Below are positions 2,510-55,107 of a stretch of DNA of 64,000 nt, piece after piece. Made by a program: the position numbers and the translations under genes. The first letter of the stretch is position 1. Each line of letters begins with the position of its first letter. Source of the DNA: an uncultured archaeon (GTDB lineage: Archaea; Nanobdellota; Nanobdellia; Pacearchaeales; GW2011-AR1); assembly GCA_963845205.1 (NCBI GenBank), contig CAWJRC010000002.1, positions 152,825-216,824 of the forward strand. The letters are read 5' to 3'. The notes beneath the pieces are model-generated. The model was not told the DNA's origin, searched no databases, and saw nothing but the letters and a program-made list of their open reading frames with translations.

Positions 2510-2671
2510 TTAAATCTGCCCTGTCTGATTGAACTTAGCCATTAATTTTTCAAGAACAACTTGTGGCGCAAATCCTTTTCTACTGCAAGCCTTTGCGAAA
2601 TCGTCATAAATGTTCTGGGCTATGTTATAATCAAGTTTTCTTTTTTTTGGATCTGGTGGATATGTTCCCAT
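2510..2671 (-). CDS. Small 53-aa protein, possible ribbon-helix-helix fold
   Basis: Below the track cutoff. Translates to MGTYPPDPKKRKLDYNIAQNIYDDFAKACSRKGFAPQVVLEKLMAKFNQTGQI, a strand-helix-helix-like pattern. Its ATG (2671) is exactly 29 nt from the palindromic box at 2693..2700. Confidence 0.45.
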   Translation of the reverse strand: MGTYPPDPKKRKLDYNIAQNIYDDFAKACSRKGFAPQVVLEKLMAKFNQTGQI

Positions 2672-2692: not shown

Positions 2693-2700
2693 TTTATAAA
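2693..2700. promoter_or_regulatory. Palindromic TATA box (TTTATAAA) shared by divergent genes
   Basis: Box centre 2696.5 equals the midpoint of minus ATG 2671 and plus ATG 2722. It is 29 nt to each. Confidence 0.55.
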
Positions 2701-30627: not shown

Positions 30628-33084
30628 TTATTCGAGATAAATTGCCGGTCTTTCAGGTTTAGCCTTCTTTGATTTGTTTTCAGGATCATGTTTATTCTTA
30701 TCGTTAACTGCATAGATAAAAACTTCAAGATTTGTTTTCTTTTTTATCATTTCCATGGCATCTCGATAGATATCTTTTTCTTTAGGAATTGTATAAACAA
30801 AAACCTTTTTCTTTTCGCCTAAAATCTTAAGAACATTATTTATGTCCTCTGTAAGCGATTCAATTGCTTTCTCTTGTTTTTCCAGTTTATCCTCGATTTT
30901 TGATTCATCTATCTCTGGCCATTTTTCAATACTGACAAATTTTTTATTACCCATCTTTTCCCAAAGTTCTTCGGCAATATGCGGACAAAAAAGAGAAATT
31001 AATTTTATCAATATTTCATAATCCTCCCTTGAGATTTTCTCTTTGTTTGAAAGGTAATTAATGAATTCTATAATTGCAATTATCGCCTTGGGATATTCAA
31101 AAGTTTCTATATTTTCGGTTACTTTTTTTATTGCTAAATTATATTTATGCATGTCCATTTTGCTAGTTTTAATTTTCCCAATTTTGTCATACAAAGAGAT
31201 AATTCTATTTATAATTCTAAAAGAACCCTCTATTCCTTCATCATTCCATTCCATCTGCTTTTCGGGGGATGCAACAAACATCAAAAATAATCTTGCAGTA
31301 TCTATACCATACTTTTTTGCTATTTCATCTTGAGTTACTATATTGCCTTTGCTTTTGCTCATTTTTGCTCCATCTTTGTAAACAATTCCCTGATTGAGCA
31401 AATTTGTAAATGGTTCATCAAAATTCAAAAATCCCAGATCTCTCAGAGCCTTTGTAAAAAATCTTGAATACATGAGATGACCTACGGCATGTTCTATTCC
31501 TCCGATATATTGATCAACAGGCATCCAATATTCCACCTTTTCTTTATCAAAAGCAAATTTATTATTTTTAGGATCACAGTATCTTAAGAAATACCATGAA
31601 GAATCAACAAATCCTCCCATTGTGTCTGTTTCCCTTCTTCCCTTTCCGCCACATTTCGGGCATTTTACATTTTGAAATTTTTTGCTTGATAAAATTGGAT
31701 TTGTATTACTTCCAAATTTAATATCATCGGGGAGCAAAACAGGCAAATCTTTTTCAGGCACAGGAACAACTCCGCATTTGTCACAATAAATTATTGGAAT
31801 AGGAGTTCCCCAAAATCTTTGCCTTGAAATGAGCCAGTCTCTCAATTTGTAGTTAACAACCCTTTTTCCTAATCTCTTTGATTCAAGAAAATCTGTGACA
31901 TGCTCTTTGGCTTCTTCATTAAATAATCCATTAAAATCTTCCGAGTTAATCAATTTCCCCCCTTCGGTATATGCTTCTGACATTTTTGTAGGATTTAAAT
32001 CAAAATCTTCAGGCTGAATCACGATTTTCATTTTTATTTTATATTTTTTCGCAAATTCAAAATCTCTTTGATCATGGCTAGGAACAGCCATAACCATTCC
32101 ACTTCCGTAATCAGCAACCACAAAATTTCCAGCGTAAACAGGAACTTTTTCTTTAGTCATAGGATTAACTGCATAACTTCCTGTAAAGACCCCTTCTTTT
32201 TCTAATTCTTCCAAATCTTTTTTTGAACCTGATTTAATTTTTTTAATAAATTTTTCAATATCTTTCTTCTGCCCTTTTGTTACAAGTTCCATTAATCTTG
32301 GATGGTGCGCTGATATTACCATAAAGGTCACTCCAAAAATAGTATCGGGACGCGTTGTGAATATCGGCCATTTTTCTCCATTAATCTCAAACAGTATTTC
32401 TGTCCCAAGGGATTTTCCTATCCAGTTTCTTTGCATCGTCTTTAATCTCTCGCTCCAGTTAATGTCATCCAGTCCGTTAAGAAGTTCATCTGCATAAGAA
32501 GTTATCTTAAAAAACCATTGTTCTAAATCTTTAGTAACAACTTCCGTTTCACATCTCCAGCATTTTCCATTTTCAACTTCTTCATCAGCAAGAACAGTTG
32601 TGCATTTAGGGCACCAATTAACTGGAGATTTTTTTCTATACGCAAGTCCTTTTTCAAAGAATTTTATAAAAAAATATTGATTCCATTTAAAATACTCCGG
32701 AGTGTGTGTTGAAATAATTCTACTCCAATCATAACTATTTCCCAATTTCTTTTGGTATTCCATTATTTGTTTTATAGCCTTTTCAGTATATTCTTTTGGA
32801 TTTATTCCTTCTTTTTTCGAAGCATTTTCAGCAGGAAGTCCGAAAGAATCATACCCCATGGGATAAAGAACATTGAACCCATTCATTCTTTTATATCTTG
32901 CAAAAACATCCCCAATTGTATAATTTCTTACATGACCCATATGCAGAAAACTTGCAGAAGGATAGGGGAACATTTCAAGAACATAGAATTTTTTCTTTTT
33001 TCCGTCTTTAACTTCAAAGATTTTTTCCTTCTCCCATCTTGTCTGCCATTTTTTTTCTATCTTTGAGAAATTAAATTCTACCAT
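30628..33084 (-). CDS. leuS: Leucyl-tRNA synthetase, bacterial-type
   Basis: [50 protein letters not shown], DWSR and KMSKSKGN. 818 aa. Confidence 0.93.
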   Translation of the reverse strand: [818 protein letters not shown]

Positions 33085-33106
33085 AAAAAAGTTAGGGATA
33101 ATAAAC

Positions 33107-33116
33107 TTTTAAATAT
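33107..33116. promoter_or_regulatory. Palindromic TATA-like box (tttaaa core) shared by leuS and endA
   Basis: Core centre 33110.5. Midpoint of minus ATG 33084 and plus ATG 33136 is 33110. Confidence 0.5.
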
Positions 33117-33135: not shown

Positions 33136-33654
33136 ATGGAAAAGATAAAAGCTTATATTACTGGAGAAATAGTTTCAAGTGCAGATTCAAATGCGTTCTC
33201 TCTTTATGAAAAAAGTCATTTTGGAGAAATGAAAGAGGATAAAATTCAATACTCTATTGCAGAAGCTATGTTTCTTATTAAAAGAGATAAAATGGAAATT
33301 TTTTCGAAAAATAAAAAATTGACAAAAAAGGATTTTATGAGCAAATGTGAAAAGATTGATAAAAAAATTCAAATAAAATATCCTGTCTTTAATGATTTGC
33401 GTGAAAGAGGATATGTTGTAAAAACAGCCTTAAAATTTGGGGCTGATTTCAGGGTTTATGAAAAAGGGGCTAATCCCGGAGAAAAACATGCCAAATGGAT
33501 TGTATTTGCAGAACATGAATCAAGTAGACTAACATGGCATGAATTTTCAGCAAAAAATAGAGTAGCTCATTCCACTAAAAAGAATTTGCTTTTGGCAATT
33601 GTGGATGAGGAAGGAGACATAAGCTATTATGAAGTAAAATGGCTTAAACCATAG
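33136..33654 (+). CDS. endA: tRNA-splicing endonuclease
   Basis: RGYVVKTALKFGADFRVYEKG...HAKWIVF and an LLLAIVD..YYEVKW C-terminus. 172 aa, the size of the homotetramer type. Confidence 0.85.
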   Translation: MEKIKAYITGEIVSSADSNAFSLYEKSHFGEMKEDKIQYSIAEAMFLIKRDKMEIFSKNKKLTKKDFMSKCEKIDKKIQIKYPVFNDLRERGYVVKTALKFGADFRVYEKGANPGEKHAKWIVFAEHESSRLTWHEFSAKNRVAHSTKKNLLLAIVDEEGDISYYEVKWLKP

Positions 33655-37818: not shown

Positions 37819-38229
37819 TTACATCTTGCTTCGCACACTATGCTTTGCACCACAAGCCATGCAATGAATGAATGCTAGTCTGTCCTCTTTTGATAATTCT
37901 GTGTCTGGTTTTCCACATTCCCTACACAAAACAAATTCTTTGGTATACTGTTCTATTTTTTGATTTATCTTTTCACTGGGAACTTTCATATTCAAAACTA
38001 ATCTGTCCCCCTCTCTCTGACCCGAAACTGCCAATTCTCTAAGTATAAATTTCTGGAAATGTTCGGGGTTTCTTCTTATGTGAGAAGCAATTTGGAAGAA
38101 ATTTGTTAATATAGTTTTCTTTCCTTCAAAATGCCCTTCTATTTTAGGAATCTCAAATCTTTCTCCCGAAGTTTCTGGCTTTTTGACTTTGCTGTATGCT
38201 TCATTAAGCAATTGTTCATAAGTTTCCAT
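37819..38229 (-). CDS. eif2b: Translation initiation factor aIF-2 beta
   Basis: YEQLLNEAYSKV, RFEIPK.. and the C-terminal Zn ribbon CRECGKPDT...CMACGA. Confidence 0.9.
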   Translation of the reverse strand: METYEQLLNEAYSKVKKPETSGERFEIPKIEGHFEGKKTILTNFFQIASHIRRNPEHFQKFILRELAVSGQREGDRLVLNMKVPSEKINQKIEQYTKEFVLCRECGKPDTELSKEDRLAFIHCMACGAKHSVRSKM

Positions 38230-38250
38230 GAATTAAATTCTAAAGACAAG

Positions 38251-38258
38251 TTTATAAA
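38251..38258. promoter_or_regulatory. Palindromic TATA box (TTTATAAA) shared by divergent genes
   Basis: Exactly 29 nt to minus ATG 38229 and 29 nt to plus ATG 38280. Confidence 0.55.
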
Positions 38259-38279
38259 TCTTTTAACGATTATTTTTTT

Positions 38280-38540
38280 ATGAGGCATCCGACAAAGGTT
38301 GAGAAATATGAAGGTTCACTTCTTGAACTCGCAAAAGATATAGGAAATTTGAATTATTATCAATTAGCTCATTTTTTAGATTATCTAGCGATAGATTTAG
38401 AACAACAGTCAAAAGCAGATAAAAAAAGAGGAAGAAAACAATTGTCGGGCAAATTAGAAGAAACATCTAAGGAAATTTTTCAGGCAAGAGATGAAATGAT
38501 CTCTATTGCGAATCTTTGCGAAAAACATAAAGAAGAGTAA
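38280..38540 (+). CDS. Hypothetical helical protein
   Basis: ORF track plus a promoter box at -29. No family recognised. Confidence 0.45.
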   Translation: MRHPTKVEKYEGSLLELAKDIGNLNYYQLAHFLDYLAIDLEQQSKADKKRGRKQLSGKLEETSKEIFQARDEMISIANLCEKHKEE

Positions 38541-42433: not shown

Positions 42434-42756
42434 TTAATTTACTAAATGTCCTGCCAATAAGCAGCCTCCGTAAGCCGTAATCGTATCTGTTGATTGAGTT
42501 ATTTGAGAACCATCAGGCCCGACGCAATTGTAAATAGGCTGATTTTCTACAGCGGAATTACTGCAGATAAAATCTGTTCCATTTGAAGTTATTGCCTGTC
42601 CTGATGTGCATGGAGCCGGAGGAGCGATTTGAGATGTAGGATGCCCCGGATTTGGAGTTCCGCCCGCTGTTACTGCATAAACTCCTAAAGCCATTAAGGA
42701 AAGGATTATTATTGTTGCAAAAAATAAAACCAGCGATTTTTTAAATTAATTCTCAT
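42434..42756 (-). pseudogene. Paralogue 1 of the triad, reading frame broken at a homopolymer
   Basis: ATG 42756 (attaatat box at -29) reads MRINLKNRWFYFLQQ* and stops. One extra A in the A6 run (plus-strand T6, 42737..42742) would give MRINLKKSLVLFFATIIILSLMALGVYA/VTAGGTPNPGH..APCTSGQAITSNGTDFIC. Confidence 0.55.
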
Positions 42757-42810
42757 TACCCCTTTTTTTTACTCTTCATATTAATCTTAAGTTTAAGGTT
42801 TTTTTAAATG

Positions 42811-43365
42811 TTATCCCTTATAGTTCTTCAATGCTTCTTTGACATTTTTAAGAAGTTGTTTCATGCTATCTTCAAGTTGTTCTTTGTTTTTTGTTCCTGT
42901 ACATACTAGTTTACCATTACTAAAAAGAAGAAATGTTGCATTTGGTTCTATTAATTTGTAAACTAAACCCGGAAATTGTTCTGGTTCATACTCTGTATTC
43001 TGCATCTCCAAAGCTAAAAAATTTAAATTTAATTTTAAATTGATTGTTCCTGATGCGACTATGTTCTGAACTGTTATCTTCGGTTTGGTTGTTATTTTTA
43101 CATTTATTTTTTTTAATTGCTTTATTACCGCATTTATGACTTCCCTTACCTGCGTTGTTGATTTTGTTCCTGTACATACAAGATTTCCAGATGAGAAAAC
43201 AAGAACTGCAGATTTTGGTTCTTTAACTCTTAATACTAAACCTGGAAAAGTTTCAGGATTGTATTCTGTATTTGGCTGTGTTCTTGCTAATTTTGTAAGA
43301 GGAACAGGTTTTCCTAGAGAAGCAGTCGCAACTATATTCTGTATCTTGTAATTGCTATCTGACAT
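42811..43365 (-). CDS. tbp: TATA-box binding protein
   Basis: Two direct repeats with QNIVA..L..L...FPGLV.R...P....L.FSSGK(N)LVCTG.K. Confidence 0.93.
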   Translation of the reverse strand: MSDSNYKIQNIVATASLGKPVPLTKLARTQPNTEYNPETFPGLVLRVKEPKSAVLVFSSGNLVCTGTKSTTQVREVINAVIKQLKKINVKITTKPKITVQNIVASGTINLKLNLNFLALEMQNTEYEPEQFPGLVYKLIEPNATFLLFSNGKLVCTGTKNKEQLEDSMKQLLKNVKEALKNYKG

Positions 43366-43386
43366 GTTTATAAATGGAAAAAATGC

Positions 43387-43394
43387 TTTATAAA
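43387..43394 (-). promoter_or_regulatory. TATA box (palindromic TTTATAAA) of the tbp gene
   Basis: 29 nt from tbp ATG 43365. A second identical box lies at 43367..43374. Confidence 0.5.
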
Positions 43395-43398
43395 GGCT

Positions 43399-43929
43399 TT
43401 GTCGATATCTATTCCTAATCCTTCAGCTTTATTTAGATTAATTTTTTATACTAAAAAAACAAAAAAGATTGTGGTCTCCAAAAGAAAAATTAAGAAGGAA
43501 ATCCTTGATTATCTATTAATTCCCACAAATTGGGAAAAACAAAGAAGAAAAAGGGTTTTAGAGGAGCTAAAAAGAAGAGATATTAAAAATATAATTATCC
43601 TAAATGGGTTTGATAGCGAAGATGATATTCTTTATTTGGGGAAAAAATTGAAGGGGAGAGAAAGAATTGGTTTTGTAACTTTCCCTTTGCATTATTTAGA
43701 ATATAAGGAAATAATAAAAAAGGCGATTAAGGAAGGAAAATTTCCAAATAAAATTAAGATAGAAAATATAAAGACTAAGCAAACCACAAAACAATTTATT
43801 TATGGAGTTTTTGGTTTATTAGATGAAAAACTAAAAAAAAGAAAATTAGATTATTTTCAAAACAGACTTGAGAACCCCCTTATATTTACTATCAGAAAAT
43901 TTTTTAGAAATTGTTTAATAAATAATTAA
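43399..43929 (+). CDS. Hypothetical basic protein (non-ATG start)
   Basis: ORF track. There is no internal Met, so it must start at TTG 43399 or a downstream GTG. No confident family. Confidence 0.35.
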   Translation: MSISIPNPSALFRLIFYTKKTKKIVVSKRKIKKEILDYLLIPTNWEKQRRKRVLEELKRRDIKNIIILNGFDSEDDILYLGKKLKGRERIGFVTFPLHYLEYKEIIKKAIKEGKFPNKIKIENIKTKQTTKQFIYGVFGLLDEKLKKRKLDYFQNRLENPLIFTIRKFFRNCLINN

Positions 43930-48062: not shown

Positions 48063-48133
48063 TGCGCCATTCGGGAATTGAACCCGACTCTAAACCTTGG
48101 GAAGGTTTCATTCTACCGATGAACTAATGACGC
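48063..48133 (-). tRNA. tRNA-Gly (anticodon CCC)
   Basis: Acceptor GCGTCAT/ATGGCGC, anticodon arm AAACC-TTCCCAA-GGTTT, T arm TCGGG-TTCAATT-CCCGA. 71 nt. Confidence 0.85.
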
Positions 48134-48189
48134 ATGATTATTTTTGATAAAACAGCAAATAATTTAAAGGTTATCATAATGAAAATTTT

Positions 48190-48528
48190 ATGAATAGACA
48201 AGTTAGATATAATAACCTCCGTTCAAAGCAGAATCTAGAATGCGATGAATGGTTCTTTTTAATTATTAATCAGAACAGGGAAATTTCAGAGATAAAACAA
48301 AAAATTTATGGCCTATTTTCCCCTATTTTGGAGGAATATTCTACAATTGAAGGGAATGTTCCTGAAACGGGATTAAGATACATCCTTATTGATTTTGAAT
48401 CTGCTAAGAAAGTTGAAGACTATCAAATTAGAGATTTATATCATAAAACTGTAAGGGATGTTGATCTTTATTCAAGAAAAAGAATTGATATTTCAGAATA
48501 TTTATCCCCCTTTGTTGACAAAGATTAA
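48190..48528 (+). CDS. Hypothetical protein
   Basis: ORF track only. Confidence 0.35.
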   Translation: MNRQVRYNNLRSKQNLECDEWFFLIINQNREISEIKQKIYGLFSPILEEYSTIEGNVPETGLRYILIDFESAKKVEDYQIRDLYHKTVRDVDLYSRKRIDISEYLSPFVDKD

Positions 48529-52626: not shown

Positions 52627-52785
52627 TTATTTTATAAAAACCTGCAATCCAATTCTAAAAACTAGTATTAAAACTACAAAAACAACTACATGTGTAGGTT
52701 TTAGATTAAACTTACTTTCGTATTCTTCTTTAAATTTAACTAAACCGCCCATTCCTGAAGGGATGTTCATTCCGCTGTCTGCCAT
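52627..52785 (-). CDS. secG: Preprotein translocase subunit Sec61-beta (SecG, archaeal)
   Basis: Below the track cutoff. MADSGMNIPSGMGGLVKFKEEYESKFNLKPTHVVVFVVLILVFRIGLQVFIK has the GL..F/Y motif and a single C-terminal TM. Its ATG is placed symmetrically about the box at 52808..52815. Confidence 0.65.
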   Translation of the reverse strand: MADSGMNIPSGMGGLVKFKEEYESKFNLKPTHVVVFVVLILVFRIGLQVFIK

Positions 52786-52807: not shown

Positions 52808-52815
52808 TTTTAAAA
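52808..52815. promoter_or_regulatory. Palindromic TATA-like box (TTTTAAAA) shared by secG and valS
   Basis: 30 nt to minus ATG 52785 and 29 nt to plus ATG 52837. Confidence 0.5.
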
Positions 52816-52836
52816 GTTTCTAAGGTATATGTTTTG

Positions 52837-55107
52837 ATGGATATTAAGCAAGAAAAGGAAATTTCTGAATTTTGGCAGAAAGAAAGGATTTACAAGACAG
52901 ATTTGAAAAAGAAAAATATTTTTTCAATTGACACGCCTCCACCAACTGTTTCAGGAAAAATGCATATGGGGCATGCTTCTTCATATTCCCAGCAGGATTT
53001 TATTGCAAGATTTCAGAGAATGAAACAAGGAGTTTTTTACCCATTCGGAACTGATGATAATGGGCTGCCGACAGAAAAACTTGTTGAGAAAATAAATAAT
53101 GTTAAAAGTAGAGATATGACAAGAAAAGAGTTTATTGATTTATGTTTAAAGACCTTGGAAAAGGTAACACCTGATTTTATTCAAGATTGGAAGAATTTGG
53201 GAATTTCTGCGGATTTTAGCATGGCCTATTCAACGTTAGATAAAAAAGTACAGAAAATTTCACAGGAATTTTTTATTGATTTATACAAAAGAGGGGAAGC
53301 TTACAAAAAAGAATTTCCAACCATCTGGTGTCCTGAATGTCAAACTTCAATTGCGCAGGCAGAACTTGAGGACAAAGAGCAGGCAACTTTATTTTCAACA
53401 CTAAAATTTTCATGCAATAATAAAGAACTTTTAATTTCTACTACAAGACCTGAACTTTTGGGCGCGTGCGTTGCTGTTTTTATAAATCCAAAAGACAAAA
53501 GATACAGATGGGCTGTAGGGAAAAAAGTGAAAGTTCCATTATTTGGCTTTGAAGTTCCTGTTATTGAAGATGAATCTGCTGAAATAGAAAAAGGGACCGG
53601 GGCGTTAATGATTTGTTCCTATGGGGATAAGTTTGATGTTGATGCGATAAACAGAAAAAAACTTGTTCCTAAAGTTATCTTGAATAAAGACGGGACTTTG
53701 AAAATTAAAGGATATGAGGGACTGAAGGTAAAAGTAGCTAGGAAAAAAATTCTTGAAGATCTGAAAAAAGAAAATCTGATTAAGGAACAGAAACCGATAA
53801 CAAATGTGGTTAATGTCCATGACAAGTGCGGGACCGAAATTGAATTTTTACTTACGGAACAATGGTTTATCAAAATCCTTGACAAGAAAAAAGCCCTTGT
53901 AAGACAAGGAGAAAAAATAAAATGGTCCCCCGAATTTATGTTTAAACGTTACAAAAATTGGGTTGAAGGACTGGACTGGGACTGGAATATTTCAAGAGAC
54001 AGATATTTTGGGATTCCAATCCCTGTTTGGTACTGTAGAAAATGTAATGAAATAATTCTTCCTGAAAAAAGCGAACTTCCTGTTGACCCTCTTCATGAAA
54101 AAAAGAAATGTCCAAAATGCAATCAGGTTGCAGAAGGAGAACAGAAAGTTCTCGATACTTGGGCAACTTCTTCGCTGACTCCACAGATTGCAAGCTCCCT
54201 TGTGGGGAATAAGATTAAAGTCCCCTATTCATTAAGGCCACAGGCTCATGATATAATCAGGACATGGGCATTTTATACAATAACGCGCTCTTACTTGCAT
54301 GAGAATAGTATTCCCTGGAAAGATATTATGGTTTCGGGAATTGTTACATTAAAAGGAGAGAAAATGTCAAAGAGTAAGGGAAATGTAATCTCTCCTCAAG
54401 AGATTATTGAAAGATATAGCGCTGACACTCTTAGATTCTGGGCTGCTGGTTCAAGACTTGGAGAAGATTTGGATTATCAGGAAAAAGATTTAGTTACCGG
54501 GAAAAAATTCGTTACAAAACTTGAAAATGCATCAAAATTCGTTTTTATGAATCTACATTCTTATACTCCAAAAAAAATAGAACTGGAAGAAACAGACAGA
54601 TTATTCCTTTCACAATTAAACGATTTGATTAGATCATGCACAGAAGATTTTGAGAGTTATGAGTATAATAAAGCTAAATCAGAAATTGAGAATTTTTTTT
54701 GGCATTATCTTTGTGATAATTATCTTGAAATTGTCAAGAACAGAGTTTACAATGGGAATAAAAAAGAAAAGGATTCTGCATTTTATACTCTTTATGAAAG
54801 TTTATTTTCAATTATTAGACTAATCGCACCAATAATGCCCTTTGTAACAGAAAAAATTTATCAAGATTATTTTAGAAAGAATGAAAAAATTAAAAGCGTT
54901 CATATCTCAGGATGGCCTAAAGAATTGCAGATAAAAAAAGAAAAGGATGATAAGAAAGATTTTGATGAAATTTTAAATTTCAATGGTAAAATATGGAAAG
55001 AGAAAAAAGAGAAAGGGAAGAGTTTAAGAGACGAGATTTCTATCAAGATTCCAAAGGAGCTTGAAAGATATAAAAAAGATTTAATCGCAATGCATAATAT
55101 AAAATGA
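52837..55107 (+). CDS. valS: Valyl-tRNA synthetase (compact)
   Basis: TPPPTVSGKMHMGHASSYSQQDFIARFQRM, KMSKSKGN and a CP1 editing region. The track start is TTG 52834. Confidence 0.93.
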   Translation: MDIKQEKEISEFWQKERIYKTDLKKKNIFSIDTPPPTVSGKMHMGHASSYSQQDFIARFQRMKQGVFYPFGTDDNGLPTEKLVEKINNVKSRDMTRKEFIDLCLKTLEKVTPDFIQDWKNLGISADFSMAYSTLDKKVQKISQEFFIDLYKRGEAYKKEFPTIWCPECQTSIAQAELEDKEQATLFSTLKFSCNNKELLISTTRPELLGACVAVFINPKDKRYRWAVGKKVKVPLFGFEVPVIEDESAEIEKGTGALMICSYGDKFDVDAINRKKLVPKVILNKDGTLKIKGYEGLKVKVARKKILEDLKKENLIKEQKPITNVVNVHDKCGTEIEFLLTEQWFIKILDKKKALVRQGEKIKWSPEFMFKRYKNWVEGLDWDWNISRDRYFGIPIPVWYCRKCNEIILPEKSELPVDPLHEKKKCPKCNQVAEGEQKVLDTWATSSLTPQIASSLVGNKIKVPYSLRPQAHDIIRTWAFYTITRSYLHENSIPWKDIMVSGIVTLKGEKMSKSKGNVISPQEIIERYSADTLRFWAAGSRLGEDLDYQEKDLVTGKKFVTKLENASKFVFMNLHSYTPKKIELEETDRLFLSQLNDLIRSCTEDFESYEYNKAKSEIENFFWHYLCDNYLEIVKNRVYNGNKKEKDSAFYTLYESLFSIIRLIAPIMPFVTEKIYQDYFRKNEKIKSVHISGWPKELQIKKEKDDKKDFDEILNFNGKIWKEKKEKGKSLRDEISIKIPKELERYKKDLIAMHNIK

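Follow-up and report, generated by a model that had tools for sequence, protein, structure and literature searches.

Divergent genes spaced 51-52 nt apart around a shared TATA box in a DPANN archaeal lineage: candidate bidirectional promoters for leaderless mRNAs

In an uncultured DPANN archaeon and its relatives, divergent genes recurrently have their start codons 51 or 52 nt apart with a TATA palindrome or core midway between them. The pattern is real and lineage-wide, and comprises ~10% of all divergent pairs. The distance of 51 nt arises because both promoters, each with its box at positions -29 to -22 relative to the start codon, share one 8-bp palindrome. These spacers are very probably compact bidirectional core promoters of the BRE-TATA-BRE type which would direct the transcription of leaderless mRNAs both ways.

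The window, which is the whole 64,000-nt stretch of DNA that was analysed, belongs to an assembly of 695 kb with a G+C content of 32% in five contigs. In total, 864 genes were called by a simple ORF caller based on codon bias, which in every case selects the longest ORF and assigns start codons blind to promoters and TATA boxes. Spacing was measured from start codon to start codon (A-to-A) as a proxy for transcription start sites. For comparison, 1.2 Mb of sequence was taken from 80 loci of related genomes. The closest aIF2-beta loci in public genomes come from MAGs that carry the label Pacearchaeota, Woesearchaeota or Nanoarchaeota (DPANN). The number of pairs expected at a given spacing was taken from the remainder of the 30-130 nt range, and P values for the excess are Poisson probabilities. 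The basal factors TBP and TFB are both encoded in the genome, by one gene each (Table 1).

Four loci in the window had been singled out in a preliminary description as having a palindromic TATA box or its core midway between divergent ATG codons 51-52 nt apart, and every coordinate of these arrangements holds. At two of the loci the start codons are 51 nt apart, and at the other two, where the core is TTTTAAA(T/A) and the strand-specific 8-mers lie one base apart, the distance is 52 nt. In the leuS/endA spacer, TTTTAAAT occupies positions -29 to -22 of endA and TTTAAAAG, on the opposite strand, occupies the same positions of leuS; the shift of 1 nt between these 8-mers accounts for the spacing of 52 nt. 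For valS the longest-ORF start is an in-frame TTG at 52834, and the ATG that follows it lies 29 nt from the box. The pattern CAT-N21-TTTWWAAA-N21-ATG has 2 matches in the window versus 0.04 expected from dinucleotide-preserving shuffles, and CAT-N22-TTTWAAA-N22-ATG has 3 matches versus 0.05 expected from shuffles, two of them being the 52-nt loci. The third (42777-42833) was treated as a chance match, as no called gene flanks it and its CAT at 42779 does not share the frame of the gene at 42694. A scan of the 38-kb locus for sigma-70 promoters and terminators did no better than shuffles.

Searches against Pfam confirm the identities of aIF2-beta, LeuRS, EndA and ValRS. The LeuRS product also matches PF13603, the leucyl-tRNA synthetase editing domain (E 7e-65). 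This domain model is typical of bacterial-type LeuRS, and the match would hint at a horizontally acquired synthetase. Two small ORFs that lacked annotation had been proposed as genes on the strength of the geometry, and both proposals are borne out. One encodes Sec61-beta (archaeal SecG), with a Pfam score of 26.0 bits that is just below the cut-off of 27 (E 1e-5) and an NCBIfam match to PRK01253 (E 2e-5). The other, of 53 codons, is present and stop-free in 22 of 61 related genomes across the order at 55-98% identity. Searches of Pfam and NCBIfam with the 53-aa protein (MGTYPPDPKKRKLDYNIAQNIYDDF...) returned no family; a resemblance to ribbon-helix-helix proteins that was noted by eye lacks support from a Pfam or NCBIfam match and is not claimed. 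The divergent neighbour of the 53-aa gene is usually a SAM methyltransferase gene. The 86-aa gene opposite aIF2-beta is found in the genus alone (5 of 61 genomes, including that of the window), and its product had no match in searches of Pfam and NCBIfam.

Table 1. Coordinates of shared boxes, flanking genes, basal transcription factor genes and examples of the second spacing state. Positions are those of the window unless preceded by C2 or C4.
Feature	Position	Strand	Remarks
Shared TATA box TTTATAAA, palindromic	38251-38258	.	-29 to -22 of aIF2-beta (-) and 86-aa gene (+); between CAT 38227-38229 and ATG 38280; A-to-A 51 nt, 21 nt either side
aIF2-beta gene, 136 aa	37819-38229	-	Pfam PF01873, E 1e-35
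86-aa gene	38280-38540	+	No family match
Shared TATA box TTTATAAA, palindromic	2693-2700	.	Common to 53-aa gene (-) and methyltransferase gene (+); between CAT 2669-2671 and ATG 2722; 51 nt, box 21 nt from each start codon
53-aa conserved small gene, unknown family	2510-2671	-	Conservation in relatives
Gene with class I SAM methyltransferase domain, 346 aa	2722-3762	+	Profile match
TATA region cTTTTAAAt	33106-33114	.	leuS/endA spacer; between CAT 33082-33084 and ATG 33136; start-to-start 52 nt
Leucyl-tRNA synthetase gene (leuS)	30628-33084	-	Pfam
tRNA-splicing endonuclease gene (endA)	33136-33654	+	Pfam
Shared TATA box TTTTAAAA, palindromic	52808-52815	.	-30 to -23 of Sec61-beta (-), -29 to -22 of valS (+) from ATG 52837; CAT 52783-52785; distance 52 nt
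Sec61-beta (archaeal SecG) gene, 52 aa	52627-52785	-	PF03911 and PRK01253
Valyl-tRNA synthetase gene (valS)	52837-55107	+	Pfam; ATG 52837 preferred
TBP gene (tbp), single copy in genome	42811-43365	-	Two repeats, 99.7 and 97.1 bits
TFB gene, single copy, just outside window	C2:149179-149724		Two cyclin repeats, 91.8 and 78.2 bits
59-62 nt spacer	C2:293834-293894		Second spacing state
59-62 nt spacer	C4:21391-21451		Second spacing state
59-62 nt spacer	C4:63081-63141		Second spacing state
59-62 nt spacers in relatives			L010, L017, L037, L039, L053

A spike of divergent pairs at 51-52 nt, which had been anticipated from the four loci, is present in the genome itself and in its relatives. Twelve of the 131 divergent pairs in the genome are spaced by 51 nt (8 pairs) or 52 nt (4 pairs) versus 1.66 expected (P 2e-7), and valS/Sec61-beta would be a thirteenth if valS starts at its ATG. 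Among the relatives, 22 of 213 divergent pairs are spaced by exactly 51 nt versus 2.2 expected (P 4e-15). A control that treated every distance in the same way, admitting each in-frame ATG within 25 codons as a possible start, raised the number at 51 nt to 32 and left 2 each at 50 and 52 nt. A lack of enrichment at this spacing would have told against the preliminary description, and the outcome favours it. When the 51-nt spacers are pooled, 18 of 30 have TTTATAAA as their central octamer.

Spacing has a second preferred state at 59-62 nt, with 8 divergent pairs versus 2.3 expected in the genome (P 0.003) and 13 versus 3.0 expected in the relatives (P 2e-5). These spacers have two abutting boxes with an offset of 10 nt (for example, TTTATAAA-AA-TTTATATA), each of which is at positions -29 to -22 of its own gene and overlaps the BRE position of the other promoter. 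Pairs at 33-37 nt are not claimed as the counterpart of the second class (36 bp) of Warman et al. (bioRxiv 10.1101/2020.01.31.928960). Three of the four 36-nt pairs at the aIF2-beta locus (L022, L025 and L028) regain a spacing of 51 nt through an in-frame internal ATG, and the fourth (L005) does not. The 34-nt pair in the window (43365/43399) rests on a TTG start that has no ATG nearby. This TTG is the longest possible start of a 176-aa ORF (43399-43929, plus strand) that is divergent from tbp and lacks an ATG close to its 5' end. The likelier start of this ORF looks to be a GTG at 43471, which has TTTTTATA ~29 nt upstream, so the 34-nt spacing to tbp is probably an artefact. A divergent spacer of 120 nt (48070-48190) contains, on the minus strand, a sequence resembling a tRNA gene (GGGAATTGAACCCGA...), and a tRNA gene there would explain why the spacing is not minimal.

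The promoter of tbp itself has the box TTTATAAA at positions -29 to -22 (43387-43394). A second perfect copy of TTTATAAA, at positions -9 to -2 (43367-43374), covers the point where transcription is expected to start. Conservation of the promoter box, (C)CTTTATAAAG, is high among 30 relatives, and about one-third of these have a second TA-rich box at variable positions between the promoter box and the ATG. It is possible that TBP regulates its own transcription.

Partners of the divergent genes change among relatives. The aIF2-beta gene is paired with different divergent genes, and its spacing is kept at 51 or 61 nt. One family of partners with 27 members (~176-197 aa) is spaced from aIF2-beta by 51 nt in 10 loci, and an internal ATG gives the same spacing in six more. 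The 86-aa family, which is unrelated to the 27-member family, has the 51-nt spacing in the genome of the window and in a single relative, and at least six other groups of partners are at 61 nt. For the 53-aa gene, a CAT at 51 or 52 nt with the same box between occurs in 7 of 12 orthologous loci, in which the left-hand flanking sequences belong to visibly different groups (flanks rather than partner genes were compared). Since partners change while spacing is retained, the geometry has been rebuilt repeatedly. Packing at the minimum distance fits this turnover better than does co-regulation of particular pairs.

The shared box is not peculiar to divergent pairs. The preliminary description had taken the central octamer to be a TATA box, and it proves to be the general box of the genome, positioned at the standard -29 to -22 for both genes of a pair. 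Of the 482 genes that have 40 nt or more upstream, 103 have the motif TTTAWA starting exactly at -29 and 54 have it starting at -27, with 2-6 genes at each other position; the genes in the -27 class have the variant TTTTTAAA. In the relatives TTTAWA starts at -29 in 232 and at -27 in 86 of 971 genes (318/971). The consensus, TTTAWAAA at -29 to -22, precedes about half of all first-in-unit genes, and at the expected position of the BRE (-33 and -32) the frequency of A is 0.63 across the 482 genes.

Genes with this box also have the features expected of leaderless genes. Motifs resembling a Shine-Dalgarno (SD) sequence precede 3.7% of the TATA-class genes versus 35% of operon-internal genes, ATG is the start codon of 139 of 141 TATA-class genes versus 214 of 256 operon-internal genes, and a T immediately precedes the ATG (position -1) in 57% of TATA-class genes. 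The tail of the 16S rRNA has a normal anti-SD sequence (GGATCACCTCC), and SD-led initiation is therefore used inside operons. A fixed distance to the TATA box, rarity of SD motifs and preference for ATG are thus all present at the level of sequence, as the proposal of leaderless mRNAs had implied, and this classic signature suggests that first-in-unit genes are leaderless. In the case of aIF2-beta, for example, a leaderless mRNA probably begins at the ATG at 38229.

Direction at a symmetric box had been proposed to depend on A-rich flanks that serve as BREs on both sides, and the class as a whole supports this. Flanking sequences of the 51-nt class are mirror images of one another, with A at frequencies of 0.83 and 0.73 at -33 and -32 and T at frequencies of 0.73 and 0.67 at -19 and -18. 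One-way promoters with the same TATA box have T at -19 and -18 at frequencies of 0.37 and 0.34 (Fisher P 7e-4 and 3e-3, where the 30 spacers of the class are not independent since orthologous loci account for many of the 51-nt pairs from relatives). Compared with one-way promoters, a BRE-like run of A on both sides of the box is enriched in the 51-nt class only. The match to a BRE at single loci is imperfect, as with the GACAAG upstream of the box for the gene at 38280.

In the mechanism proposed for these spacers, a single TBP would bind the central palindromic octamer and a single TFB would engage the A-rich BRE on either side of it, which would allow a pre-initiation complex to form in either orientation. 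RNA polymerase would then start ~26 nt from the centre of the box, within about a base of the A of each ATG, and both genes would be expressed as leaderless mRNAs. The two orientations would be mutually exclusive at any one moment. By this mechanism, 51 nt (52 nt with a slip of 1 nt) would be the shortest spacer that gives both genes a standard promoter, and genome streamlining would have driven ~10% of divergent pairs to that limit.

Other explanations of the arrangement are far less probable. The shared box might fire one way, with the other gene transcribed from a promoter internal to its neighbour or by read-through, in which case the symmetry would be a by-product of tight packing. Because many one-way promoters also carry TTTATAAA, the palindrome alone is no proof of two-way use; the excess of the octamer in the 51-nt class over one-way promoters is modest (60% versus 39%, or 37/94; P 0.06). 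Against firing in one direction, however, both start codons are at the exact TATA distance that prevails genome-wide, both genes start with ATG and lack an SD motif as leaderless genes do, and the BRE-like run of A is enriched on both sides in this class only. Moreover, the spacers form a sharp peak at exactly 51 nt and not a broad pile-up at short distances, and boxes of this type from Pyrococcus furiosus fire both ways in vitro (PMC6640164). We consider one-way firing unlikely.

It is quite improbable that the central palindrome is instead the operator of a specific transcription factor which co-regulates the pair and is not a basal TATA box. Palindromes between divergent genes are classic operators, and leuS/endA and valS/Sec61-beta are all housekeeping genes with roles in information processing or protein export, as might be expected of co-regulated pairs. 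The same 8-mer, however, is found at -29 to -22 before hundreds of unrelated one-way genes, and the partners of aIF2-beta are exchanged among relatives with the spacing kept. Chance, or an artefact of start-codon choice, has some initial appeal since starts were assigned by a simple rule and TA-rich octamers are common in a genome with 32% G+C. Such an origin is scarcely credible given that shuffled sequences yield 0.04-0.05 matches where 2 and 3 are observed in the window, that the spike departs so far from expectation in both data sets (P 2e-7 and 4e-15), that TATA boxes were ignored when starts were assigned, and that distances neighbouring 51 nt are left unraised by the control with internal ATGs.

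A further reading goes beyond bidirectional promoters as such and is put forward tentatively. The rigid TATA-to-ATG rule may quantise the divergent spacers of Pacearchaeota-type DPANN archaea, at 51 nt with one box and ~61 nt with two abutting boxes that are each the other's BRE, and may place essential housekeeping pairs on a mutually exclusive TBP/TFB assembly that couples their expression in an anti-correlated manner. On this speculative account aIF2-beta, leuS/endA and Sec61-beta/valS would be the dependent pairs. If it were true, the arrangement would represent a lineage-wide design rule and would provide a natural system for the choice of orientation by TFB on a symmetric promoter.

From sequence alone, the pattern gives a clear view of the promoter rules of an archaeal lineage that is uncultured and host-dependent, and it would put the practical minimum for a spacer between divergent leaderless genes at 51 nt. 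It also has uses in annotation. It supports the reality of two small genes (the 53-aa gene and that for Sec61-beta), favours the ATG of valS at 52837 over the TTG at 52834, and makes the internal ATG that gives 51 nt the likelier start for the aIF2-beta neighbours of six relatives.

In leaderless genes of other archaea the distance from promoter motif to start codon is fixed, as was found by dRNA-seq in Haloferax volcanii (PMC4983044), and GeneMarkS-2 models leaderless genes (PMC6028130). The genes described here resemble such leaderless genes in the fixed distance of ~26 nt from box centre to ATG, the lack of an SD sequence and the strong preference for ATG. The words divergent, bidirectional, head-to-head and palindrome do not occur in the text of PMC4983044, and a search of the literature for promoters of DPANN archaea or Pacearchaeota yielded no paper.

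Bidirectional promoters have been described for bacteria, in which overlapping -10 elements give start sites 18 bp apart (10.1101/2020.01.31.928960; Escherichia coli, PMC12825309). As in the spacers described here, a symmetric core serves both strands and the two binding events are expected to be mutually exclusive, but the bacterial elements are sigma70 -10 hexamers with a distance of 18 bp rather than sites for TBP/TFB with a distance of 51-52 nt. In Thermococcus kodakarensis, divergent start sites lie 52 bp apart around a shared TTATAAA, with H. volcanii being similar, and Warman et al. attributed direction to the symmetry of promoter elements (bioRxiv 10.1101/2020.01.31.928960). Those promoters likewise have one symmetric TATA box (TTATAAA there, TTTATAAA here) midway in ~52 bp. 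They were defined by mapped start sites, many of them for antisense or non-coding RNAs, whereas here the geometry is that of start codons, and leaderless mRNAs of protein genes are predicted both ways for ~10% of divergent pairs in an uncultured DPANN archaeon.

In P. furiosus, Gruenberger et al. (2019) described a BRE-TATA-BRE arrangement midway between sense and antisense start sites ~50 bp apart, obtained both transcripts in vitro with starts 49 bp apart, and proposed that symmetric binding of TBP makes bidirectionality widespread in AT-rich archaea (PMC6640164). The features of this type are found in the 51-nt class: a box midway, an excess of distances at ~49-52, a BRE on both sides, and TBP and TFB encoded in the genome. 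The P. furiosus promoters share with it a symmetric TATA box flanked by a BRE on each side over ~50 bp. Their second transcript, however, is mostly an antisense RNA that lacks a function and has the weaker BRE, and their mRNAs mostly have leaders, whereas the spacers described here, defined by sequence, have genes on both sides that are apparently leaderless. The mechanism is thus already known for Thermococcales and Haloferax, having been published in 2019-2021, and the present findings leave the understanding of archaeal transcription unchanged. What appears specific to this case is the new lineage, the prediction that both products are mRNAs of real and mostly essential genes that are apparently leaderless, the share of ~10% of divergent pairs, and the additional state at ~61 nt.
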